DNA from: Myxococcota bacterium
GTDB lineage: Bacteria; Myxococcota; XYA12-FULL-58-9; JABJBS01
Direction of reading: 5' to 3'
NCBI GenBank assembly: GCA_036339465.1
Contig: JAYZAY010000062.1
Span: 1 to 64,000 of the forward strand
Length of the DNA stretch: 64,000 nt
Shown piece by piece: positions 20,875 to 45,251 of this stretch. Every line of letters starts with the position of its first letter. Within the stretch, counting starts at the first letter, position 1. The notes under the pieces are model-generated. The model saw only the letters and a program-made list of their open reading frames with translations. It did no database searches and was not told where the DNA came from. A program made the translations under genes and the position numbers.

Positions 20875-22644
20875 ATGACCGACGCAACCTTTGCCCTGGG
20901 CATCGACCTAGGCACCACCAACAGCGCCTTGGCAAGCGTCCTTATGGGCGACAAGACCTGCGCCCCCACCCCCCTGGCTGTGCCTCAAACCGTGGCTCCT
21001 GGGGAAACCATGGCCCATGAGCTTTTGCCGTCGTTTCTCTACATGACCGCCCAAGCCGAACGCTCTCCCGGCGCCTTCTCCCTGCCGTGGCAAGCGTCCA
21101 CGGAGCAAGTGGTGGGCACCTATGCCCGCAAGCAGGGCGCGGCCACGCCGGGGCGATTGATTTCCTCGGCCAAAAGCTGGCTCTCCTACAGCGGCATCGA
21201 CCGCCGTGGCCAAGTGCTACCCTGGGAAGCCCCCGAAGGCGTTCCGAAGATTTCTCCCCTCGAAGCCTCGGCTCAATACCTGGCCCATCTCCGGGCTGCT
21301 TGGGATGTGGCCCATCCCGAAGCGCCTTTGGGTGAACAAGACGTGGTGCTCACCGTGCCCGCCTCCTTTGATGCCGCGGCCCGAGAGCTCACGGTGGAAG
21401 CGGCGTCTCAAATTGGGCTTAAAGACAACCTTCGGCTTTTGGAAGAACCCCAAGCCGCCCTCTACGCTTGGCTGGCCGATAAGGGCGACGGTTGGCGCGA
21501 CGAACTAAACGTGGGCGACAGCATCCTAGTTTGCGACATCGGCGGTGGTACCACCGACTTCTCTCTCATCTCTGTGCAGGAGCAAGAGGGGGTGCTCGAG
21601 CTCAAGCGGGTGGCGGTGGGGGACCACATCCTTTTGGGCGGGGACAACATGGATTTGGCTCTGGCCTATGGTGTGTCGGCTAAGCTAGAGCAAAATGGGA
21701 AACGTTTGGACGATTGGCAAATGCGCGGCTTGGTACATGGTTGCCGCGTGGCCAAGGAAAGCCTTTTGGCCGATGAAAGTCGTGACACCTATCCCCTGGC
21801 CATCGCCAGTCGAGGCAGCCGACTTTTAGGCGGCACTATCCGCACCGAACTCACCCGGGCGGATTTGGAAACCACGCTTTTGGAGGGCTTCTTTCCTGAG
21901 GTGGCCGCCACCGCCAAGCCCCAAGTTCCCCGCCGGGTGGGGCTCACCACCTTGGGTTTGCCCTACGCAAGCGACGCCGCGGTCACCAGGCATCTCGCAG
22001 CATTTCTGGCTCGGTCTCAAAGTGCCAAGGGTATGACCTATCCCACCGTCATTCTCTTCAATGGTGGGGTGACCCGTTCCCCCATCGTGCGCGATCGCAT
22101 CCTCAAGGTGCTTGGGTCCTGGGCCCAAGAGGCAGGAGTTGCCGGACCCAAAGTCTTAGACGGTGGGGATCCCGATTTGGCCGTGAGTCGGGGGGCGGCC
22201 TTCTACGCCCAAGCCCGTCAGCTGGGTGGTCTGCGGATTAAAGGTGGCACGGCGCGGTCCTACTATATTGGGGTGGAGCAAAACCAAATGGCGGTGCCCG
22301 GAATTCCCCCCAAACTCGATGCCCTCTGCATTGCTCCTTTTGGTATGGAAGAAGGCACCGAAGTTCACCTCAGCGAACCCTTCGGCCTTTACGTGGGTGA
22401 GCCGGTGTCTTTCCGCTTCTTCGGCTCGTCTAAACGTCAAGAGGATGAAGTGGGCACGGTGGTTGACCCAGGCGATTTGGCCGAAGTAGCCCCCATCGAA
22501 ACCACCCTAGACGGCGACGAGGGCACGGTGGTGCATGTTCGACTCCACGCCCGGGTCAGCGAAGTGGGCACCCTAGAGCTCTCGGCGGTGGAGGTTGATT
22601 CCGACCGTCGCTGGAAGTTAAGTTTCGACGTTCGCATGAATTAA
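20875..22644 (+). CDS. Atypical Hsp70-family protein
   Basis: GIDLGTTNS, TVPASFD, EEPQAA, DIGGGTTDF, VGDHILLGGDNMD. Confidence 0.92.
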   Translation: MTDATFALGIDLGTTNSALASVLMGDKTCAPTPLAVPQTVAPGETMAHELLPSFLYMTAQAERSPGAFSLPWQASTEQVVGTYARKQGAATPGRLISSAKSWLSYSGIDRRGQVLPWEAPEGVPKISPLEASAQYLAHLRAAWDVAHPEAPLGEQDVVLTVPASFDAAARELTVEAASQIGLKDNLRLLEEPQAALYAWLADKGDGWRDELNVGDSILVCDIGGGTTDFSLISVQEQEGVLELKRVAVGDHILLGGDNMDLALAYGVSAKLEQNGKRLDDWQMRGLVHGCRVAKESLLADESRDTYPLAIASRGSRLLGGTIRTELTRADLETTLLEGFFPEVAATAKPQVPRRVGLTTLGLPYASDAAVTRHLAAFLARSQSAKGMTYPTVILFNGGVTRSPIVRDRILKVLGSWAQEAGVAGPKVLDGGDPDLAVSRGAAFYAQARQLGGLRIKGGTARSYYIGVEQNQMAVPGIPPKLDALCIAPFGMEEGTEVHLSEPFGLYVGEPVSFRFFGSSKRQEDEVGTVVDPGDLAEVAPIETTLDGDEGTVVHVRLHARVSEVGTLELSAVEVDSDRRWKLSFDVRMN

Positions 22645-22687
22645 AAGCTGCGGCTTTTCGAGTCGCGCCTCTTTTTGGGATCATCAC

Positions 22688-25453
22688 ATGACCGAACCTC
22701 AATTTATCGTGGGCATCGATTTAGGTACCACCCACTGCGCCCTAGCGGCGAGTCCCGCCAATCGCGCCGCCGTGAAACTCTACGAGCTTCCCCAATTGAT
22801 TTCTCCAGGGGAGGTGTCCTCCCTGCCCCTTTTGCCTTCGCTCCTCTACTTGCCTACGGAAGGGGAGTTGACTGAAGGGGCGACGGAGTTGCCCTGGGGC
22901 AAGACGCCCCATGTGGTGGGGGAGTTGGCCGGTCGCCTCGGCGCCAAGGTGCCCCATCGTTTGGTGGCCTCGGCCAAGAGTTGGATTTGCCATGGCGGCA
23001 TCAATCAACGAGCACCGGTGTTGCCCTGGAACGCGCCGGAAAACGAACCACAAATTTCCCCTTACGGCGCTTCGGTACAGTATTTGGCCCACCTCAAATC
23101 AATTTGGGATGCCTCCCATGGTGATGCGCCCTTGGCTCAGCAAGATGTCACCATCACCGTGCCGGCTTCCTTTGATGAAGCGGCCCGAGAACTTACCTTG
23201 GAAGCGGCCAAGGAAGCGGGTTATGGCATTGATGTGCGTCTCATCGAAGAGCCCCAAGCGGCTTTTTACGATTTCCTTGGCTTCCAGGGCGACGACATCC
23301 GCGACCGCCTGGCGGGGGCCAAGTTGGTGCTGGTGGTGGACGTGGGTGGTGGCACCACCGATTTAACCCTATTGAAAGTACTCGAAGGTGAAGACGGGAC
23401 TCCCAATCTGGAACGAATTGCGGTGGGCGGTCATCTTCTTTTGGGCGGGGACAACATGGATGCGGCCTTGGCCCACCACGTGCTGGGGAAAGCCAATCGC
23501 ACAAGTCTTGATCCCAGTGAGTGGTCTGGCTTGGTGCAGTCGGTGCGTTTGGCCAAGGAAAAGCTTTTGGGCCCCGGTGCGCCCGAAGAAACAGTGGTTT
23601 CTCTTCAGAAGCGCGGCTCCCGACTCATCGGTTCCACCCAGAGTATTGTCCTCACCCGCGCGGAAGTGAACGAAGTTTTGGTGGACGGTTTTATTCCCAA
23701 AACCGGAGCATCTGATGTGCCCGAGAAAAACAAGCGGGCCGGTCTTACCACCCTGGGGCTGCCCTACGCCACAGATCCTGGCATTCCCCGCCACGTGTGT
23801 GCCTTTTTGCGGCGACATATCGAAGGCGCTAAGGAAGTGGGGGCTGCGATCCAAGATGGCTTGCCTCGCCCTGATTTGGTGCTCCTAAACGGCGGGGTTT
23901 TTCATGCCCAAGCCTTGGTAGAACGCTTGGCTCAAGTGTTTACCCATTGGTTTGGAGGCCAAACAATTCCCTTTTTGGAACACACCTCTCTTTCCACTGC
24001 GGTGGCCTGTGGTGCGGTGCGCTATGGTTTGGCGCGACGTGGCCAAGGGCAGGTTATTGGTGGTGGCACGCCCCGGGCTTATTATCTGGGGGTTCAAGGC
24101 CAGGACGAACGACTCCAGGCCTTTTGCGTGGCTCCGCGGGGCATGGAAGAAAACACCACCGTGGAAGTCACCAACCAAGTATTGAATCTGGTGCTTAACC
24201 GCGAGGTGAGCTTCCCCCTTTATGTCTACACCGGGGATAGGACAGACATCGCGGGGACGGTGGTGGATGTGGACGACGAACTCGAACCCACAGCCCCCAT
24301 CCAAACCGTGCTTCGGGATAAGGTAGGTTCTCTGAAGGAAAACGAGGACGGCACCATTCCCGTCACCCTAGGCGCGGAACTCGATGAAAGTGGCGCCTTG
24401 AAACTCAATCTGCGAACCATGGAACTTCCCCCCCGCCGGTGGCGTCTTCAATTTGCCCTTCGTGTTGACGGCGAGGAAGGCAAGCAGGAGGATGGCAAGG
24501 GGCAGGAAAGCGCAGCTTCCAAGGGTGGCTCGAAGTCTGTGCTGCCCGACAACTTTTCCCGGGCCCGCCGGCGTATTACCGATATGTTTGGTAAGGAACA
24601 GGAAGTGGCCAAGGTGAAGGGGATCCGAAAGGATCTGGAAGAGATCCTCGGGCCTCGGGGCGAATGGTCGGCCCACACTTGCCGGGCTATTTTCGATGCT
24701 TGTATGAAGCAACAAGCGGTGCGGGGCCAAAGCGCCTTTCACGAGGTGCAATGGCTTCGTTTGATTGGCTTTGGACTGCGCCCGGGCCTGGGTATTTTGG
24801 GCGATGCGGACCGGGTTCAGGATCTCTGGGAGCTCTATGGTCGGGGGTTGAAATTCCCCTCTAAGGCAAACTTTGGCGAGTGGTGGATCCTGTGGCGCCG
24901 TGTGGCTCCGGGCTTGGACATGGCTAAAACCCACAGGCTCTATGAGGATACCCATCTCTGGCTTTTACCCGAAACAAGTCCTAAAATAGGACCGCGTCTC
25001 ACCGGGCAGGCCGAGATGATGCAGATGTTGGCCTCCTTGGAGAAACTCTCTGCGGCCCAAAAAATTTCCATTGGGCAAGCCTACCTCAAGAATCCCAAGA
25101 AGTTCAGCACTTGGTTGCCCTTGGGTCGGTTGGGCAGTCGTGCTCCTCTTTATGGGGGAGCGAGCACGGTGGTGGGAAGAGATGTGGCCAACGAGTGGTT
25201 AAAAATCCTTCTCGAATTGGATTGGAAAAAATCCGAAGGGGCGCCTTTCGCGGCGACGCTGATTGCACGAATGACTGGCGATGAAGTTGTTGATCTGGAT
25301 GCGGGATTAAGGGGAGATTTGGCACAACGCTTGAAAGAAGCCAAAACTGCGGCGAGTTGGCGCGAGATGGTGCTTCATCCCACCAACCTTTCTCACAAAG
25401 ATGCTTCGCGCATATTGGGTGAGGCTTTGCCCGTGGGACTTCGTTTGGATTGA
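22688..25453 (+). CDS. Atypical Hsp70 with C-terminal DUF3731-like helical domain
   Basis: GIDLGTTH, DVGGGTTDL, LGGDNMD; C-terminal WLRLIGFGLRPGLG, EWWILWRRVAPGL, GRLGSRAPLYG, ILGEALPVGLRL. Confidence 0.9.
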   Translation: MTEPQFIVGIDLGTTHCALAASPANRAAVKLYELPQLISPGEVSSLPLLPSLLYLPTEGELTEGATELPWGKTPHVVGELAGRLGAKVPHRLVASAKSWICHGGINQRAPVLPWNAPENEPQISPYGASVQYLAHLKSIWDASHGDAPLAQQDVTITVPASFDEAARELTLEAAKEAGYGIDVRLIEEPQAAFYDFLGFQGDDIRDRLAGAKLVLVVDVGGGTTDLTLLKVLEGEDGTPNLERIAVGGHLLLGGDNMDAALAHHVLGKANRTSLDPSEWSGLVQSVRLAKEKLLGPGAPEETVVSLQKRGSRLIGSTQSIVLTRAEVNEVLVDGFIPKTGASDVPEKNKRAGLTTLGLPYATDPGIPRHVCAFLRRHIEGAKEVGAAIQDGLPRPDLVLLNGGVFHAQALVERLAQVFTHWFGGQTIPFLEHTSLSTAVACGAVRYGLARRGQGQVIGGGTPRAYYLGVQGQDERLQAFCVAPRGMEENTTVEVTNQVLNLVLNREVSFPLYVYTGDRTDIAGTVVDVDDELEPTAPIQTVLRDKVGSLKENEDGTIPVTLGAELDESGALKLNLRTMELPPRRWRLQFALRVDGEEGKQEDGKGQESAASKGGSKSVLPDNFSRARRRITDMFGKEQEVAKVKGIRKDLEEILGPRGEWSAHTCRAIFDACMKQQAVRGQSAFHEVQWLRLIGFGLRPGLGILGDADRVQDLWELYGRGLKFPSKANFGEWWILWRRVAPGLDMAKTHRLYEDTHLWLLPETSPKIGPRLTGQAEMMQMLASLEKLSAAQKISIGQAYLKNPKKFSTWLPLGRLGSRAPLYGGASTVVGRDVANEWLKILLELDWKKSEGAPFAATLIARMTGDEVVDLDAGLRGDLAQRLKEAKTAASWREMVLHPTNLSHKDASRILGEALPVGLRLD

Positions 25454-25510: not shown

Positions 25511-27529
25511 CTATTTCTGAAACATCCCTTCCTCATAGGCGCTAATGACGCCTTTGAAGGCCGATGCGGCGACTGTGAGGGGCGAGGCGAGATAGAGTTT
25601 GCCGGGGCCACTTCTCCCTTGAAAATTACGGTTGATGGCCGATACGCTCACTTGCTCGGCGGTTTCGCTCACGCCTGGGCCGCAGCCGATGCACGCTCCA
25701 CAACCGGGATTGATAAGTTTAACGCCGGCCTGCTCAAAGAGCTCAGTCCAGCCCTGCTCTTTGGCGTAGATGGCCACGTCTTTGCTGCCATATTGAATGT
25801 AGAAGGCGACGTGGTTGGCGACTTTGAGTCCGGCCTCCACGGCTTCTTTGGCGACCTGTGCGTAAAACGCAAAATCATCCACCTTGCCGGCGGTGCAAGA
25901 ACCTCCGTAGGCGATGTCGATGTGGACCGAGTCCAAATTTGCGACCATCTCTCCATTGGTGGGATCGCTTGGGATCCCTTGGTCGGGGTTGCCGGGGTGT
26001 GCCACCATGGGAGCGATGGTGGTTAAGTCGATGGTATGGACGCCGCCGTCGTAGTGGGCGTTTGTATCGGGTTTAACGAAAGAGGCTAGGATTTCTTCGG
26101 CCGAGAGGTGGGGTCGCCTTGCCTGAAGCCACGTGAGGGTTTTGTCATCGGCCTCGGCGATACCTGTTTTGGCGGTGCATTCTGTGGCCATATTACAGAG
26201 GGTGGCGCGTTCATCCATGCTTAAGGCAGCAAGGCCAGGCCCCCCGAATTCCATGGAGCGATCGAGGGTTTCTTCGTTCTTGGCGAAGGTTGAGAGGATA
26301 TAGAGGATGATATCCTTGGCGGTGGTGCCGGGTTTTAGCGCACCGGCTAATTCAAATCGAATGGATTGAGGAACCTTCACAAAGCTGTAGCCGCTGTAGA
26401 TGGAGGCTGCATATTCTGTGGCGCCGACGCCGTAGGAGAGGGCGTTATTTCCCCCGCCCATACAGGTGTGGCTATCGGTGGCTTGAATAAAATCGCCGGG
26501 GTCTACAAAGTGCTCGCGGGCTACTTGGTGGCAGATCCCGGGGGAAATACCATCCTTGGCGGAGTAATCCCTAACGCCGGTGTGGGCCTGAAATTCGTTT
26601 TGGAGGGTCCGCAGGGTTTGAATCTTCGATACAAAGGGTTGAAACCTTTTAACCCCATCGGCGTAGAGCAGGTGGTCTTCGAATACAGCGAGTTTTTGAG
26701 GATTTTTGACCTCATATCCTTCGCCGAATTCCCTTTTAAGAAAGGTGTGCACTTGGGCACTGGTGAATTCGTGGCTGTAGCCCCCATCGGTTCTGGCCAG
26801 AACGGGGTCTCCAGGCTTGACGAAAATGGTTTTCTCCTGGGGAGCACCCACCACTTTAGAGGCGACCATTTTTTCCACCATGGTCATGGGTCGCGTTTGG
26901 GTGGAGGGAAGTGGAACTTCAATTTCTCCGGTATCGAGTTTTTGGCAAAATGCGAAAAGCCCCCCCGCTTCGAGAATTTTTTGGGTCACGGGATCGTATT
27001 TGCCGATGAATTCCCCCAGTGGGATCTCTTCACCTAGCTGGAGACGTTCCAATAGGTCGTAGCCACCCATGAGTTGACCCAGGTTGATGTTGTTGCGTTC
27101 GTGAATGGGGGCGAAGGAGTGCGCAATCACGATTCGGATCCCACTGTATCTTTCGCACTGGGCGGCAGTTTCCCGTGAGGAGCCGGTGCCTTTGCGTTGG
27201 CCGCTTACGATGACCTCGAAATTGCCCTCCTTGAGGGCATTGGCTTTGAAAACCCTTTCACCCCGGTGGAGCAGACCGGCATAAGCGTTTTCGGCAATGG
27301 CTTCGGGTTCATGGTCAAAACATACCCAGGCTGGGGTCATGACGTCGGTGTTGATATCGTCGAGGAGGTCTTTGGGATCCACCTCACTCATTTTGAGATC
27401 TAGCCCTTCATAGAGCTGCTGACCGATGAGATCGAGATCTTTGGTGAGGAATAGAATGCGTTTTCCGGAAGTTAAGCGAAGGGTGGTTTGATTGCTTGTC
27501 ATGGGCTGTCTCTCCGGTTGGGTTGACAT
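25511..27529 (-). CDS. Aconitase-family hydratase/isomerase, swivel (LeuD-like) domain fused N-terminal to the large (LeuC-like) domain
   Basis: DDINTD and GTGSSRE; GICHQV, DSHTC, GGSCTAG, PGCGACIG, INRNFQGRSG. Confidence 0.9.
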   Translation of the reverse strand: MSTQPERQPMTSNQTTLRLTSGKRILFLTKDLDLIGQQLYEGLDLKMSEVDPKDLLDDINTDVMTPAWVCFDHEPEAIAENAYAGLLHRGERVFKANALKEGNFEVIVSGQRKGTGSSRETAAQCERYSGIRIVIAHSFAPIHERNNINLGQLMGGYDLLERLQLGEEIPLGEFIGKYDPVTQKILEAGGLFAFCQKLDTGEIEVPLPSTQTRPMTMVEKMVASKVVGAPQEKTIFVKPGDPVLARTDGGYSHEFTSAQVHTFLKREFGEGYEVKNPQKLAVFEDHLLYADGVKRFQPFVSKIQTLRTLQNEFQAHTGVRDYSAKDGISPGICHQVAREHFVDPGDFIQATDSHTCMGGGNNALSYGVGATEYAASIYSGYSFVKVPQSIRFELAGALKPGTTAKDIILYILSTFAKNEETLDRSMEFGGPGLAALSMDERATLCNMATECTAKTGIAEADDKTLTWLQARRPHLSAEEILASFVKPDTNAHYDGGVHTIDLTTIAPMVAHPGNPDQGIPSDPTNGEMVANLDSVHIDIAYGGSCTAGKVDDFAFYAQVAKEAVEAGLKVANHVAFYIQYGSKDVAIYAKEQGWTELFEQAGVKLINPGCGACIGCGPGVSETAEQVSVSAINRNFQGRSGPGKLYLASPLTVAASAFKGVISAYEEGMFQK

Positions 27530-33521: not shown

Positions 33522-33569
33522 GACCGATATTCTAAGACCGATATTCTAAGACCGATATTCTAAGACCGA
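33522..33569. repeat. 14-bp intergenic tandem repeat x3.4
   Basis: (GACCGATATTCTAA)3 GACCGA between convergent genes. Confidence 0.95.
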
Positions 33570-35502: not shown

Positions 35503-35820
35503 TCCCGCTATCTAAGAGGGGTAGAAATCCCCATCCTATGGCCCGGTAAATAGAAGGCGAGGGCCACAAGGTCAAACACTTCCGCCCATATTTCGCGCCC
35601 CAAAGGTGATAACATTCGCCAACGACTTTAGGCTGTTACTTATAAAAGGGTTGCAGATGACTTTGTCGGGATACTTTTCCACTACTTGGGCCCACATGCT
35701 ACAATGAAACGATACTTCCAAAGTGGTAACTTTCGAGGAGTAGGGCTTGGAATTTGAAATTAAGCAGGGTGAGAGTAGAATCACCCTCTGACCTTCTGAC
35801 CGAAAAAAGGAAAGAGAGAC

Positions 35821-36834
35821 ATGCGCATTGGATTGATGGGATTTGGGCGTATTGGGCGCAATATCTTCAGAATTTTGGATGAAATGGAGGATGGTGCCGA
35901 GGTGGTGGCGATCAGTGATATCGCCAACCATGAAAGTTTGGAATATTTGCTTCAGTACGACACGATTATGGGCCGTTTGAACCACCGGGTCCGTTTAAAA
36001 GAGGGGTATCTCTATAGCCGAGGTCGCCAAATCAAGATGCTCTCGGGTAGGGATGCCGGAGATGTTACCTGGGGGCATTGGGACGTGGATGTGGTCATTG
36101 AAGCCAGGGGTTTGGCGCCAACGAGATTGGAGGCGCAAGTCCATCTAAAATCTGGTGCGAAGCGGATTATTTCATGTGTGCCCACCCTAGGTGGTGGAGA
36201 TTATCAGGTGGTGATGGGGCTCAATGATGAGGGACTGACATCAGAGCATAAAATCATCGACAGTGCACCGGTTCAGACTCAGTGTTCGGCGCTGAGCTTG
36301 GATATCTTGGACAAGGCATTTGGTATTGAGCATGTTTTTCTAAGTACCGTTCATGCTTATACCAATGATCAGAGTTTGGCGGATGTTCCTTCCAAGGATT
36401 TGCGGCGCTCCCGGGCGGCTCGGGAAAATATCATTCCCCTTGATCTGAAGTTAAGCAAGAATTTGGAGCTGCTCTTTCCGCATTTGGAGGGAAAAATAAA
36501 GGATTTGGCTTTGAAGGTGCCGGTGCCCAATGGTTCTATGGTGGATTTGGTGGTTTCGACGAAGCGAGAGGTCTCTGTTACTGCGGTGAATGAAGTGATG
36601 CGTTCGGCCATCGAAGCGAAGTACCCGAATTATATGGAATTCATTGATGAGCCGATTGTTTCCAGTGATGTTCAGCTAAGTACGTTTTCCAACAGCTTTG
36701 ATTCGTTGGCGACCATGTGTTTGGGAGACCGCCTGGTGAAAACGGTTTCTTGGTTTGATGATGGAACCGGGACGGCACACCGGGTGGTTAATCTATTGGA
36801 TAAATTGGGCGAGAGTGAAGGAGGTCTGCTATGA
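35821..36834 (+). CDS. GAPDH-like protein lacking the catalytic cysteine
   Basis: GFGRIGR, YLLQYDTIMG, HAYTNDQ retained; NASCTTNC replaced by SAPVQTQC. Confidence 0.88.
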   Translation: MRIGLMGFGRIGRNIFRILDEMEDGAEVVAISDIANHESLEYLLQYDTIMGRLNHRVRLKEGYLYSRGRQIKMLSGRDAGDVTWGHWDVDVVIEARGLAPTRLEAQVHLKSGAKRIISCVPTLGGGDYQVVMGLNDEGLTSEHKIIDSAPVQTQCSALSLDILDKAFGIEHVFLSTVHAYTNDQSLADVPSKDLRRSRAARENIIPLDLKLSKNLELLFPHLEGKIKDLALKVPVPNGSMVDLVVSTKREVSVTAVNEVMRSAIEAKYPNYMEFIDEPIVSSDVQLSTFSNSFDSLATMCLGDRLVKTVSWFDDGTGTAHRVVNLLDKLGESEGGLL

Positions 36835-37832
36835 CGGTTCGAATCGCGATTAATGGTTTTGGCCGGATTGGGCGGAGTGTTTTTCGAGTGCTGGCAAAGC
36901 GCGATGACATCGATGTGGTCGCTATCAACGATATCTTCCAAAATGAGGAACTCGCCTATCTTCTCAAGTACGATACGGTGATGGGTATTTTGGATGAGAC
37001 TGTCTCTTTTACGGATTCATCTCTGATTGTGGGGGATTCTGAAATTAGGATGACCAAACAACGGGATCCGGCGGAGCTTCCGTGGAAAGAATTGGGTGTG
37101 GATGTTGTTTTGGAATCAACGGGGAAATTTCGGTTCCGTGAACAATTTGAACGTCACCTTGAAGCGGGAGCACGCAAGGTTTTGTTGAGTGTTCCTCCTA
37201 AAGACGCCGTCGATGCCATGATTGTGATGGGGGTCAATGATGAAGATTTAACACCCGATTCTAGATTGATTTCCAATGCTTCATGTACCACCAATTGTCT
37301 GGCACCGGTGGCCAAGGTTTTGGATGATGCTTTCGGAATCGAACGCGGGTTCATGACTACGATTCATGCCTATACCAACGATCAACGCTTGGCCGATGTG
37401 CCTCACGAGGATTTTCGACGGAGTCGCGCGGCAGCAGAGAATATCATTCCGACCACGACGGGTGCGGCTCGAGCAGTGGCCAAAGTATTGCCTCAACTTG
37501 ATGGAAAACTTGATGGGATGGCGGTCCGGGTGCCCGTTCCCGACGGTTCTGTGGTTGACTTGACGGTTCAGTTTCGGGGTACGCCCAATCGAGATGAGGT
37601 GAATGCGGCGATGAAAGCTGCTGCGGAAGGCCCCATGAAAGGGGTGCTGGAGTATTCAGAAGCTCACTTGGTTTCAAGCGATGTTATCGGCAACCCCCAC
37701 AGTTCTATCTTCGATGCCCTGACCACTCAGGCGACCGGGGACGGTTATGCCCGTGTTCTAAGTTGGTACGATAATGAATGGGGTTATTCCAATCGGTGTG
37801 TTGATCTCATTGAACGAATGGCGAAAGGCTAG
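36831..37832 (+). CDS. gap: Type I glyceraldehyde-3-phosphate dehydrogenase
   Basis: INGFGRIGR, ISNASCTTNCLAP, IIPTTTGAA, WYDNEWGYS. Confidence 0.97.
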   Translation: MTVRIAINGFGRIGRSVFRVLAKRDDIDVVAINDIFQNEELAYLLKYDTVMGILDETVSFTDSSLIVGDSEIRMTKQRDPAELPWKELGVDVVLESTGKFRFREQFERHLEAGARKVLLSVPPKDAVDAMIVMGVNDEDLTPDSRLISNASCTTNCLAPVAKVLDDAFGIERGFMTTIHAYTNDQRLADVPHEDFRRSRAAAENIIPTTTGAARAVAKVLPQLDGKLDGMAVRVPVPDGSVVDLTVQFRGTPNRDEVNAAMKAAAEGPMKGVLEYSEAHLVSSDVIGNPHSSIFDALTTQATGDGYARVLSWYDNEWGYSNRCVDLIERMAKG

Positions 37833-38484: not shown

Positions 38485-38969
38485 ACCGAACCAACCTCCA
38501 CCGGCGCCTATAAAATATTGCGCAACGAAACTCATAAGGCGGCTTTTCCACTGACGCAAGGAGATAGCGCAGAACGTCACTTTGTAGGAGGTTTCGGTGT
38601 GGGTATGGAGTCCACTTGGCATTGAATGGGAACTGAACGGCAGGAAAAAAGGATTCGAGAAACCGGTAACAATTGCGCCTCGACTGTCCCTTCTGATTTT
38701 AGACTGGTTTTAGACCAGAGGGTGTGGGTGTTTGTAGGCATATCACCTCTTTGTCGTTGTGTTCTGTTTTTGGGATTTTGAGCACAGATACTCACTTGTT
38801 TTGGCACTTGCTTTGGCTTTTGGATTGGTGGTTGTCTATTGCGATGGTGCTTACTCTTGAACGAGGGTGGCATTAAGGGCTGAATGTAGGCATTTAAAGC
38901 GTGATATGGTATCCTGAGTGCATAGAAGCTGGGTCTGTTTGGAAATCAGTTTGGGCTGAGGTTGTACTG

Positions 38970-40388
38970 ATGAATAGAACAAAAATAGTTGCTACGGTTG
39001 GGCCAGCATCGGTAGCCCGGGAAACCCTTCGAGGGATGATGCATGCTGGAATGAACGTTGCGCGCATTAATATGTCGCATATTGATATCGAAGGTGCTCG
39101 GGAAATTATTAAGCGGATCCGGTCATTAAACGATGAATTGGATTTGAATACAGCGGTGTTGGTGGATTTCCAGGGACCGAAGCTTAGACTTTCGACGGTG
39201 GCGCCTGGAACCGTACTTGTCACTGGTGAAACCATAGAACTTACCACAGAAAACGTCGAGGGCAATGCTCACAAAGTGCAGGTTTGTTATGATGCCTTTG
39301 CCCGCGATGTGGCTGTGGGTGAGAGAATCCTTCTGGATGATGGCAAGCTTGAACTTGAAGTACTGGCGACGAATTTTAAGGATCTGGTCACTGCAAAGGT
39401 CATTATGGGTGGGGCTCTGAGTTCTCGAAAAGGTGTCAATGTGCCCGATACTTCCATTTCCATGGCCTCACTTACAGAGAAGGACCACAAGGATTTAGAA
39501 GGCGTTTTGGACTGTGAACCAGAATGGGTAGGACTGTCTTTTGTCCGTCGTGCCGAGGACATTCGCGATCTAAAAGGATTGGTGACGCAGTCGGGGCGGC
39601 TTTCAAAGATTGTGGCGAAAATTGAGAAACCGGAAGCTTTGGCAGTGTTGGACGAGGTGATTGAAGTATCGGATGCGGTGATGATTGCTCGCGGGGACTT
39701 GGGGGTCGAGATCCCCATGGAACAGGTACCCATTGTTCAGAAAGAAATTGCCAGGAAGGCACGAATGGCTTCGAAGCCGGTGATTATTGCGACCCAAATG
39801 ATGGAGAGTATGATCGAGTGCAGTCGTCCCACGCGGGCAGAGGCCAATGATGTTGCGAATTCAGTATTGGATGGTGCGGATGCCCTGATGTTGAGTGGGG
39901 AGACTTCCCTTGGGATGCATCCTATTCAAACGGTGGCAGCCATGTCGAAGATCATCGCGGCGACGGAAAGTTCGGCGGTGGGTTATCTGTCTTCGCCACC
40001 ACAAAAAGGTCGAACCCAAGACCGTTTTATCGCCGATGGCATTTGCTACCACGCTTGTGAGATGGCGGAGAAAATGCAAGCCAAAGCAGTTTTATGCATG
40101 ACGTACAGTGGTTACGCCGGGATTAAAATTTCCAGTTATCGCCCAGATGCCAATATTTTTGTTTTTACACCCAATCGCTCGATCCTTAATATGCTGAGTC
40201 TGGTTTGGGGGATCCAGGCATTCTACTACGATGGATTCGAGAGTACGGACCGCACTGTTGGGGATGTTCAACAAATCTTGAAACGGAAAGGCTTGGTTGA
40301 GTCTGGAGATGTGGTGGTCAACACAGCCAGCATGCCTATCACGAAGAAAGGCCGGACCAACGTTTTGAAAATTGCTCGGGTCGAATAG
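38970..40388 (+). CDS. pyk: Pyruvate kinase
   Basis: RTKIVATVGPAS, DFQGPKLR, AKIEK, MIARGDLGVE, ATQMMESM, MLSGETS; start at ATG 38970. Confidence 0.97.
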   Translation: MNRTKIVATVGPASVARETLRGMMHAGMNVARINMSHIDIEGAREIIKRIRSLNDELDLNTAVLVDFQGPKLRLSTVAPGTVLVTGETIELTTENVEGNAHKVQVCYDAFARDVAVGERILLDDGKLELEVLATNFKDLVTAKVIMGGALSSRKGVNVPDTSISMASLTEKDHKDLEGVLDCEPEWVGLSFVRRAEDIRDLKGLVTQSGRLSKIVAKIEKPEALAVLDEVIEVSDAVMIARGDLGVEIPMEQVPIVQKEIARKARMASKPVIIATQMMESMIECSRPTRAEANDVANSVLDGADALMLSGETSLGMHPIQTVAAMSKIIAATESSAVGYLSSPPQKGRTQDRFIADGICYHACEMAEKMQAKAVLCMTYSGYAGIKISSYRPDANIFVFTPNRSILNMLSLVWGIQAFYYDGFESTDRTVGDVQQILKRKGLVESGDVVVNTASMPITKKGRTNVLKIARVE

Positions 40389-43399: not shown

Positions 43400-44038
43400 G
43401 TGGGTATTTTTCAGACCGATTCCTATGATACTGCCGCCCGGGATTTGATTGAAATCGGCCGTTTCTTTCACGGTTTTGGCTGGGCTGCGGCAACGAGTGG
43501 CAACTATTCAATTCGCATTGCCGATGACCAGGTGGTGATGACCGTTTCCGGTTGCCACAAAGGCGAATTAACGCCAAAAGATTTTTTGGTTGTAGATCTC
43601 GATGGAAGGCCCTTGGCGGTTTGGCGTGATGAGGACACAAGTTCTGCAGAGGCGCGACTCCATTTGCAGGTGTATCAAAACAAGCCCCAGGTCTGCTCGG
43701 TCCTCCATTGTCACACGGTCGCAAGTACGGCGATTTCACGACTCCATGATCATAGTCTGGAATTGGCTGATTACGAGGTCTTTAAGGCTTTCCCACAATT
43801 CAAAACCCATGAGCACGATATTTCGATTCCCATTGTGGGCAATAGCCAGGATATGGATATTTTGTCTCAGGTCGTGAGTGAGCGTTGGAAAGAAATCGAT
43901 GCGGTAAGTTCCTATTTGATCCGAGGTCACGGGTTATATACGTGGGGAGATTCTCCAATGGGTGCACGCAATCAGGTTGAAGCGCTAGATTTTCTATTTC
44001 AGAGTTGGTTATTGGAAAAACGGAGCAGAAGGAAATGA
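43400..44038 (+). CDS. mtnB: Methylthioribulose-1-phosphate dehydratase
   Basis: GWAAATSGNYS, SAEARLH, VLHCH, YLIRGHGLYTWG; adjacent mtnD and mtnC. Confidence 0.93.
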   Translation: MGIFQTDSYDTAARDLIEIGRFFHGFGWAAATSGNYSIRIADDQVVMTVSGCHKGELTPKDFLVVDLDGRPLAVWRDEDTSSAEARLHLQVYQNKPQVCSVLHCHTVASTAISRLHDHSLELADYEVFKAFPQFKTHEHDISIPIVGNSQDMDILSQVVSERWKEIDAVSSYLIRGHGLYTWGDSPMGARNQVEALDFLFQSWLLEKRSRRK

Positions 44039-44577
44039 CGTGTTTAAAGGTTTGGGAGCATCCTAGTGTTAGGTTGAAAGAGGAAACCACCGACTCCGAA
44101 GAAATTCAAAAAATACTGAGTGGTTATGGTGTCCGGTTTGAGCGGTGGGAAGCCTCCGCCTCTCTTGCCGATGATGCGACCCAAGATGATATATTGGCGG
44201 CCTACGCTCAGAGCGTGAAACGTCTGAAATCTGAGTCGGGTTTTCAATCGGCCGATGTGGTGAGCTTGACACCCGACCACCCAGACAAAGTTGCATTCCG
44301 GGAGAAATTTCTGAGTGAACATATTCATTCCGATGATGAGATTAGGTTTTTTGTGGATGGTAAGGGACTATTTTGTATGCACTTTGACAATCAAGTTGTC
44401 ACAGTATTGTGTGAAGGTGGCGATTTGATCAGTGTGCCTGCGAATATCAAGCATTGGTTTGACATGGGACCGGAACCGTTTTTTAAGTGCATTCGATTGT
44501 TTACAACTCCTGAAGGTTGGGTCGCTGATTTTACCGGTGATTCAATTGCAGATTCTTACCCAAAGCTTGGATCATGA
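44035..44577 (+). CDS. mtnD: Acireductone dioxygenase
   Basis: GVRFERW, FLSEHIHSDDEIRFFVDG, GDLISVPANIKHWFDMG. Confidence 0.95.
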   Translation: MTCLKVWEHPSVRLKEETTDSEEIQKILSGYGVRFERWEASASLADDATQDDILAAYAQSVKRLKSESGFQSADVVSLTPDHPDKVAFREKFLSEHIHSDDEIRFFVDGKGLFCMHFDNQVVTVLCEGGDLISVPANIKHWFDMGPEPFFKCIRLFTTPEGWVADFTGDSIADSYPKLGS

Positions 44578-45251
44578 ACGTTTCTGGCATTGTGACAGAT
44601 ATTGAGGGAACGACGACCTCCATTTCCTTTGTTTACGACATCCTTTTTCCTTATGCACGTAGGCACCTGTCGGATTTTGTAATGGCCCACCATGGGCGTG
44701 AAGCGGTGGCAAAGGTATTGGAGGAGATTCAAGAAATTTCAGGTGCTTCGGAGCCGAAAGCCGCAGTCGATGTTTTACTCGGGTGGATGGATGCCGATCA
44801 AAAGGTGACCCCATTAAAGTCTCTCCAAGGTATGATTTGGCGAGATGCTTATGAGTCGGGCCAAATCAAGGGGCATGTTTATGAGGATGCTTATAAGGAG
44901 CTTAGGTCGTGGCGCGATGGCGGTAAGTTTCTCGCGGTCTATTCTTCAGGTTCTGTTGCGGCCCAGAAACTTCTTTTTGGCTACAGTGACTTTGGAGATA
45001 TGAGACCTCTTTTTCGTGATTATTTTGACACGACCACAGGTCCCAAGAGAGAAGCTCAATCCTATGGAAAAATTGCTACCGCTTTGGGGGAGGATGCGGG
45101 TTCGTTACTCTTTCTTTCCGACGTTGAGGCAGAGCTTGATGCTGCATTTGAGGCAGGATTTCAGGTGGTCCAATTGATTCGTGAAACCTCAATGACCCCA
45201 AGTGCAAAGTACCGTTGGGTGCGTTCTTTTTCCGAGATTGAATTACCCTAA
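44574..45251 (+). CDS. mtnC: Enolase-phosphatase E1 (acireductone synthase)
   Basis: TDIEGTTTSISFV, LKSLQGMIW, YSSGSVAAQKLLF, LFLSD. Confidence 0.95.
   Translation: MNVSGIVTDIEGTTTSISFVYDILFPYARRHLSDFVMAHHGREAVAKVLEEIQEISGASEPKAAVDVLLGWMDADQKVTPLKSLQGMIWRDAYESGQIKGHVYEDAYKELRSWRDGGKFLAVYSSGSVAAQKLLFGYSDFGDMRPLFRDYFDTTTGPKREAQSYGKIATALGEDAGSLLFLSDVEAELDAAFEAGFQVVQLIRETSMTPSAKYRWVRSFSEIELP

Follow-up and report, generated by a model that had tools for sequence, protein, structure and literature searches.

A degenerate GAPDH paralogue paired with an intact gap gene in several bacterial phyla, and its proposed role as a non-catalytic subunit

What purpose is served by a GAPDH homologue that has lost key residues of its active site, yet is kept directly ahead of an intact copy of the gene? 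The question is raised by two adjacent genes in the window, the whole 64,000-nucleotide stretch of DNA that was analyzed. Their products, P0001 and P0002, are both full-length GAPDH homologues and are 42% identical (Table 1). A tblastn search of the assembly, which is 92.8% complete, recovered these two as the only gap homologues, and P0002 is the only intact gap found; pgk is present in the same assembly. The preliminary description of the locus had reported two full-length homologues overlapping by ATGA, replacement of the nucleophile Cys by Val at 36271-36273, the altered motifs IIPLDLKLS and WFDDGTGT, the motifs GFGRIGR and HAYTNDQ, the nucleophile motif IDSAPVQTQCSAL, the S-loop sequence DLRRSRAARENIIP and an intact frame, and all of these readings proved correct.

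Table 1. Positions in the window of the gene pair and of the sites discussed in the text.
Feature	Position	Strand	Basis or detail
Promoter-like TTGAAA-16-TAGAAT ahead of pair, weak	35754..35781	+	Scan: 2 such sites vs 4.0 expected by chance
Degenerate GAPDH paralogue P0001, 337 aa, proposed non-catalytic subunit	35821..36834	+	Pfam domains, predicted fold
Kept glycine-rich NAD loop GFGRIGR	35839..35859	+	Alignment
Dead nucleophile motif, Ser-Cys-Thr to Pro-Val-Gln	36268..36276	+	Alignment; same in runs X1 and X2
Kept His and S-loop (subunit-contact loop), HAYTNDQ...RRSRAAREN	36352..36429	+	9/10 invariant S-loop residues
Lost phosphate loop, Thr-Gly to Leu-Lys	36445..36450	+	IIPTTTGAA to IIPLDLKLS; Gly in 5/114 members
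Substrate-phosphate Arg to Lys (most of subfamily: Asn)	36514..36516	+	Arg in 3/114 members
Nicotinamide-side motif NEWGY to DGTGT (subfamily: NGWGY)	36760..36774	+	Glu in 0/114 members
AGGAGG ribosome-binding site of P0002, within last codons of P0001	36819..36824	+	6 bases 5' of P0002 start
ATGA stop/start overlap P0001/P0002	36831..36834	+	
Intact type I GAPDH P0002, 333 aa	36831..37832	+	TIGR01534 441 bits; catalytic TGT codon 37284-37286

The arrangement of the two genes is not an assembly error. Contigs of two public runs from separate studies of marine metagenomes, X1 (which may be the source sample) and X2, cover the Val codon, GTT, with zero differing letters, and the overlap is covered by contigs of runs X1, X2 and X7. 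When neutral evolution was simulated, 1 of 1000 histories at 20% divergence, and none of 1000 at 30%, preserved an open frame as long as that of P0001; because neutral histories so rarely keep such a frame open, the open frame of P0001 is not due to chance. Its codon use is ordinary. Five runs of RNA data contain only small shares of the sequence words of the locus. A scan for promoters and terminators near the pair detected nothing above chance, and the promoter-like site in Table 1 is not evidence alone, since chance would supply more such sites than were found; the TAGAAT box also occurs upstream of the pair at two other loci (L006 and L007). A perfect 7-8-7 inverted repeat, AGGGTGA...TCACCCT, lies over the promoter-like -10 box at 35766-35787. 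It was rejected as a candidate operator, being single in the assembly and absent ahead of 11 related genes.

Several other features of the window were recorded. Some 1 kb beyond the pair, in the same orientation, is a pyruvate kinase gene (38901-40388); seven acidobacterial loci likewise have a pyruvate kinase-like gene after the pair, though it is not a constant neighbour. Three overlapping genes at 43400-45251 encode Aldolase_II, ARD and HAD hydrolase domains, probably a methionine salvage unit, and are presumably mtnB-mtnD-mtnC. Between 9087 and 16130 are found, in a row, a DUF4856 protein with an Asp/Thr repeat, an imelysin, an HTTM/vitamin K-dependent carboxylase-like protein and a TonB-dependent receptor, which likely form an iron-uptake cluster. 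Two tandem Hsp70-like genes (20875-25453), the second with DUF3731, have a GC content of 0.57-0.59 against about 0.49. The aconitase-family protein at 25511-27529 (672 aa) has its swivel domain (Aconitase_C) ahead of the catalytic domain, an order permuted relative to AcnA. A perfect 14-base tandem repeat of 3.4 copies (GACCGATATTCTAA) at 33522-33569, between two convergent ABC transporter genes, is perhaps a slippage locus or a set of binding sites.

P0001 belongs to the GAPDH structural superfamily by its domains and fold, but not to the active type I enzymes. Both Pfam domains, Gp_dh_N and Gp_dh_C, score above cut-off. The type I model TIGR01534 (cut-off 367.2 bits) gives 270.6 bits for P0001 and 441 for P0002, in which the catalytic and phosphate residues are all intact, as in active type I GAPDHs; two of eight other degenerate subfamily members narrowly pass the cut-off. 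An AlphaFold2 model of P0001 built with 83 sequences has the full GAPDH fold (pLDDT 86.9; TM 0.88 to 1gd1/1hdg), with residues 181-196, the S-loop, below pLDDT 50 in the monomer. Other identities were tried and set aside. Erythrose-4-phosphate dehydrogenase does not fit, as P0001 scores 241.5 with TIGR01532 against a cut-off of 530.55 and the marker residues Met179 and Cys311 occur in none of the 114 subfamily members compared below. An ArsJ-associated GAPDH (NF033735, cut-off 450) does not fit either; the pair scores 225.7 and 357.8 and has no conserved third neighbour. Among the matches in the PDB there was no solved structure of the degenerate subfamily, the best being ordinary GAPDHs and their mutants.

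Residue sites were defined from the accessible text of PMC5119734 and PMC12041015 and transferred to P0002 numbering by motif offsets; "invariant" denotes residues that are invariant in active GAPDHs. P0001 keeps three of nine substrate and catalytic invariants, the losses being Ser151 (to Pro), Cys152, Thr153 (to Gln), Thr210, Gly211 and Arg233 (to Lys); His192 is replaced by Ser. The catalytic cysteine (Cys149) is absent, with Val151 of P0001 aligned to the catalytic Cys152 of P0002, and the catalytic histidine (His176) is present as His178. Neither phosphate site is intact: at the Ps site (Thr179, residue 181 and Arg231, as defined in the accessible part of PMC12041015) Thr and Asp are kept and Arg has become Lys, and the Pi site (Ser, Thr, Thr, Gly in the accessible part of PMC5119734) reads Pro, Gln, Leu, Lys. 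Judged by these residues, P0001 is incapable of GAPDH chemistry. The earlier view that the cofactor motifs are retained holds for the glycine loop and Asp34 but not for the nicotinamide side of the NAD site, which is damaged. Nine of 13 NAD-site invariants remain; Asn8 is lost, as are Thr97 (to Arg), Asn315 (to Asp) and Tyr319 (to Thr). At the subunit contacts, P0001 has all 5 invariants of the Q range, 9 of 10 of the S-loop (R interface) and 10 of 15 of the P range; the remainder of the protein retains 31 of 52. It retains 54 of 61 sites conserved in its subfamily, compared with 32 of 119 variable ones, and its losses are clustered in the pocket. The loss of 7 of the 61 conserved sites places it toward the degenerate end of the subfamily; six members have lost more.

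P0001 represents a subfamily. Apart from the window's own record, its best 120 homologues are 50-59% identical to it and share a common signature; one (55%) is labelled Myxococcales. The nucleophile position in 120 aligned rows (P0001 and 119 matches) is occupied by Ile in 65, Val in 25, Cys in 23 and Asn in 3. The preliminary description had proposed a search for tandem gap pairs lacking the Cys, and such pairs proved to be numerous. We scanned a species-level genome collection with the signature W[YF]DNGWGY, choosing loci regardless of their neighbours, and obtained at least 120 loci (about 490 estimated). An intact gap lies directly downstream at 117 of the 120, and there are no contrary cases; the three unscorable loci are one frameshifted assembly that has both genes and two short fragments. 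Stop-to-start spacing at the 117 loci ranges from -8 to +88 bases and is -4 in 58, -1 in 27 and between -1 and -8 in 90. AGGAG or GGAGG precedes 56 of 83 partner gap starts. The loci carry labels of 11 phyla, of which single ones may be binning errors, with Acidobacteriota (53), Actinomycetota (25) and Thermodesulfobacteriota (8) the most frequent and 14 loci unlabelled. Existing labels of the proteins themselves are GAPDH, NAD-binding domain protein or aldehyde dehydrogenase, and the subfamily thus flags an annotation error. Closer to the window's own genome, the tandem pair occurs in 11 of 41 genomes, including all five others of its family. Only 9 of 201 sampled genomes of the phylum match at a strict threshold, none beyond those already seen, so the pair is patchy in the phylum. 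No third gene is conserved beside the pair; neighbour clusters follow lineages, and the largest accounts for 15 of 86 loci.

To describe variation among the paralogues, 86 from genomes (11 from relatives and 75 of 80 flanked signature loci, two frameshifted and three duplicate loci having been dropped) and 28 from metagenomes were combined into a set of 114, which was compared with 113 partners and 45 lone enzymes. Cys is kept in 48 members, His179 in 106, Arg233 in 3, Gly211 in 5 and Glu316 in none. Cys, His and Arg occur together in 3 of the 114, and no member combines these with Gly. In the partners, Cys, His, Thr182, Thr210 and Arg233 are kept in 113 of 113. New states have become fixed in the subfamily, among them Arg233>Asn and Glu316>Gly. 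Counts for Asn315, Glu316, Tyr319 and Trp312 in the genome set are biased by the search motif; the 28 metagenome paralogues, which were found through a partner motif and are free of that bias, have Cys in 10, Arg233 in 1, Glu316 in none and Asn315 in 21. Much of the pocket and NAD site is retained (Ser151 in 113, Thr153 in 108, Thr210 in 95, Asp34 in 107, Arg15 in 111). Residues in the contact ranges (taken from the accessible text of PMC5119734) include seven present in all 114 members, Arg196, Arg199, Asn204, Asp243, Asp284, Asp295 and Trp312, with Asp189 in 113. At the level of the subfamily, 18 of 30 invariants are kept in the three contact ranges against 25 of 52 elsewhere, a comparison of raw counts in which the ranges are whole strands placed by motif offsets; the P range accounts for 8 of 15. 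The tail beyond Trp312 is 21-35 residues long in the paralogues, with a median of 27 against 23, and includes no redox or regulatory extension. Five loci of the Ca. Multivorans group (L050, L052, L061, L085 and L090) combine Cys>Phe with His>Arg, yet have dN/dS values of 0.11-0.19. At a planctomycete pair (L058:4090-5112) the downstream enzyme has an odd SCTANG and IIPTTTAAP and the upstream one keeps its Cys; both may be altered.

The association was also approached from the intact partner. A metagenome scan with the partner motif LTVP gave 79 flanked loci that were scored (42 more without a flank were left out), of which 35 are paired, 33 are lone, 10 are too short upstream and one is a match inside a paralogue. 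Since 33 of the 79 are lone GAPDHs, LTVP was rejected as a marker specific to paired enzymes, and the paired clade was defined by a tree instead. When 166 full-length enzymes were placed in a tree, the paired ones fell into a single clade (SH-aLRT 97) with 113 paired members, one lone member and two unscorable rows; among its metagenome members a degenerate gene lies upstream in 30 of the 31 that could be scored. The lone member, L213:1604-2681, has unrelated genes upstream and is likely a case of secondary loss of the paralogue. Dependence of the partner on the paralogue is therefore not absolute, and L213 offers a natural control for it.

The paralogues likewise form one clade (SH-aLRT 99). 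Pairwise distances among paralogues follow those among partners (r 0.83, 106 pairs); both genes have the same nearest neighbour in 88 of 106 cases, and paralogues are not nearer to their own partners than to other partners (difference 0.005). The matched distances and the lack of closeness to the own partner point to a single ancient duplication, after which the two genes would have passed on together by descent or by transfer. The degenerate subfamily is under purifying selection. By the Nei-Gojobori method, 28 disjoint pairs (identity of 70% or more, dS 0.1-1.5) give a median dN/dS of 0.18 for paralogues (0.05-0.61, all below 1) and 0.15 for partners; split by nucleophile, the values are 0.20 without Cys (11 pairs) and 0.13 with Cys (16 pairs). 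On the paralogue tree, a quick one, the Cys state has switched eight times or more, and well-supported branches force six of these changes. The own branch of P0001 is long (0.79 against a median of 0.15), and its dS is saturated against all nine nearest loci, which leaves its dN/dS unmeasurable. The paralogue is present in genomes of Ca. Actinomarina (L048, L057, L084 and L099), which are streamlined. A subfamily that spans several phyla, is under purifying selection and is tied to an intact gap upholds the preliminary reading of P0001 as a maintained pseudoenzyme, and the case named against it, orthologues that keep the Cys with dN/dS near 1, was not found: the Cys is absent in all but one of ten relatives' P0001-type copies.

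The paralogue is dead but folded and always comes first; it overlaps its partner, carries a ribosome-binding site for the partner within its own end, shares the partner's history, keeps contact residues and has no third gene beside it. The most fitting role for such a protein is that of a subunit in the tetramer of its partner. On balance we consider it likely, though far from sure, that P0001 joins P0002 in a mixed GAPDH tetramer, predicted to be 2+2, as a non-catalytic chain with a mainly structural role; a heterotetramer subunit was among the suggestions of the preliminary description. A single old tandem duplication of gap would have given rise to paralogue and partner. Translational coupling would supply roughly equal amounts of the two chains, which would assemble through the kept S-loop and strand contacts, leaving turnover at only two of the four sites. 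The first lesions, at Arg233, Gly211 and Glu316, may have abolished activity, after which the Cys would have lingered and then been lost many times; the partner may have come to depend on the dead subunit, or to be tuned by it. Assembly would be the core role because the pocket can decay (in P0001, and with loss of His elsewhere) while the S-loop stays, which suggests that contact surfaces rather than ligand binding are the kept function in the P0001 lineage. Several observations weigh against the mixed tetramer. The kept contact residues would suit an assembly of four paralogue chains just as well, and retention in the contact ranges is little above that elsewhere and covers only 8 of 15 invariants in the P range. 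L213 lacks a paralogue, 48 members keep Cys and three keep Cys, His and Arg, and the mostly retained Ser151, Thr153, Thr210 and NAD loop suggest a ligand pocket. The branch of P0001 is long and its dS saturated. Two further sources did not decide the matter. Inter-protein covariation (106 pairs, about 73 effective) was uninformative, the top pairs being scattered and apparently driven by descent. Fusions were rejected as evidence of binding: among 7995 candidates there were six longer proteins, and the two that hold both genes, P0123 and P0124, are read as frameshift artefacts, as each is a single record in which the frame is lost past about residue 250 of the paralogue.

The retention of pocket residues makes a ligand-sensing regulatory subunit the main rival. 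The tetramer would be the same, but the remodelled dead pocket would bind NAD(H) or a phosphorylated metabolite and signal across the P interface, the route by which NAD cooperativity runs in Bacillus GAPDH according to the accessible text of PMC5119734. The high counts for Ser151, Thr153, His179, Thr210, Asp34 and Arg15 and the fixation of Arg233>Asn and Glu316>Gly favor such a role. We nevertheless regard it as unlikely, for P0001 has lost Ser151, Thr153, Thr210, Thr97, Asn315 and Tyr319 yet is kept, His179 or NGWGY is lost in other lineages, and there is neither a redox tail nor, in the 92.8% complete assembly, a CP12. The NAD(H) sensor proposed in the preliminary description fares in the same way: it is weakened for P0001 because 4 of 13 invariant NAD-site residues are gone, and it gains from the rest of the subfamily, most of which keeps them. 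Distinctly improbable, in our view, is a separate non-catalytic protein (a homo-oligomer of its own, an assembly helper or an occasional inhibitor) whose only tie to gap would be shared regulation. Self-assembly could make use of the contact residues too, the subfamily fails to retain 7 of 15 invariants in the P range, and L213 is a partner-type enzyme without the paralogue; but at none of 120 loci was the paralogue found away from a gap gene, the gene histories match, and the 90 of 117 loci with spacings from -1 to -8 point to a fixed stoichiometry.

Two explanations would make the subfamily something other than a pseudoenzyme in service, and both appear remote. An enzyme with another substrate, for example one resembling erythrose-4-phosphate dehydrogenase in vitamin B6 synthesis and active in the Cys-keeping members, would account for the Cys in 48 members, the His in most, the lower dN/dS of Cys-bearing pairs and an assembly in which pdxJ is present and no separate epd was found. 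It is nonetheless very improbable, as the nucleophile is absent from P0001 and its whole subclade, the Cys state has changed repeatedly with gene and linkage kept, and the scores of 208-304 with the erythrose-4-phosphate dehydrogenase model (cut-off 530) agree with the absence of its marker residues. A decaying duplicate, whether throughout the subfamily or on the branch of P0001 only, would suit that long end branch with its unmeasurable dN/dS, and the loss of 13 subfamily-conserved residues. Recent pseudogenization is already largely refuted and hardly credible given a full-length open frame with ordinary codon use, conserved sites retained far better than variable ones, losses that cluster in the pocket, a subfamily dN/dS of 0.18 and the persistence of the gene in Ca. 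Actinomarina.

GAPDH is one of the most intensively studied enzymes, and in bacteria it is regarded as a homotetramer. If the mixed tetramer is real, a selected and widespread non-catalytic partner would be a new architecture for it, and perhaps also a new point at which soil-dwelling and marine bacteria control the flow of central carbon metabolism. A more far-reaching version, which we offer tentatively and doubt more than we believe, is that bacteria under at least 11 phylum labels run glycolysis or gluconeogenesis on an obligate alpha2beta2 GAPDH, two of whose four subunits are dead, so that half-of-the-sites behaviour would be fixed in the genes, the dead subunit being needed for assembly and, in most lineages, acting as an allosteric sensor of NAD or a phosphate metabolite. 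As part of the same speculative scheme, the subfamily might preserve living stages of loss, from members bearing Cys, His and Arg to the fully gutted P0001. Such proteins would offer natural material for the long-standing question of how the sites of GAPDH cooperate, and their gradation would allow the transition from a homomer to a heteromer of enzyme and pseudoenzyme to be followed.

Chloroplast GapB, a GAPDH chain that carries a redox C-terminal extension, is itself catalytic. The chloroplast A2B2 enzyme of GapA and GapB is a mixed tetramer of two paralogues (PMC11025378, accessible text); here, in contrast, one chain is dead, a redox tail is lacking, CP12 was not found in the assembly and the mixed tetramer is a proposal. 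In the standard GAPDH of bacteria, a homotetramer, a single gene supplies all four subunits (PMC5119734, accessible text). With that type I phosphorylating enzyme (EC 1.2.1.12; TIGR01534; Geobacillus stearothermophilus 1GD1, Thermotoga 1HDG) P0001 shares the fold, both Pfam domains, the glycine loop, the His and the S-loop, but not the Cys, the substrate Arg or the phosphate loop, whereas P0002 is a full member. Epd/GapB (TIGR01532, cd23937), according to the accessible text of PMC12041015, is also a GAPDH paralogue with altered phosphate sites, but it needs Cys and His and is marked by Met179 and Cys311, which the mostly Cys-less subfamily lacks throughout. Full-text literature searches, whose coverage excludes subscription papers, returned no description of a degenerate GAPDH subfamily, and the paired subfamily is apparently undescribed so far. 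Outside the family, vertebrate ALDH16 is an aldehyde dehydrogenase pseudoenzyme without catalytic residues and a proposed regulator by protein contact (PMC12041015, accessible text); it resembles P0001 in its missing residues, but has another fold superfamily and no coupled active partner gene. The nearest case in terms of how it works is petunia benzaldehyde synthase, an alpha2beta2 enzyme of the SDR family in which a non-catalytic homologous subunit is needed for assembly (PMC13418739, accessible text). Both would be Rossmann-fold heterotetramers, the petunia enzyme being of a different superfamily, from a plant, and with its complex proven, whereas ours is predicted. A heteromer of enzyme and pseudoenzyme is thus already known as a kind; what would be new here is its occurrence in the textbook enzyme GAPDH.
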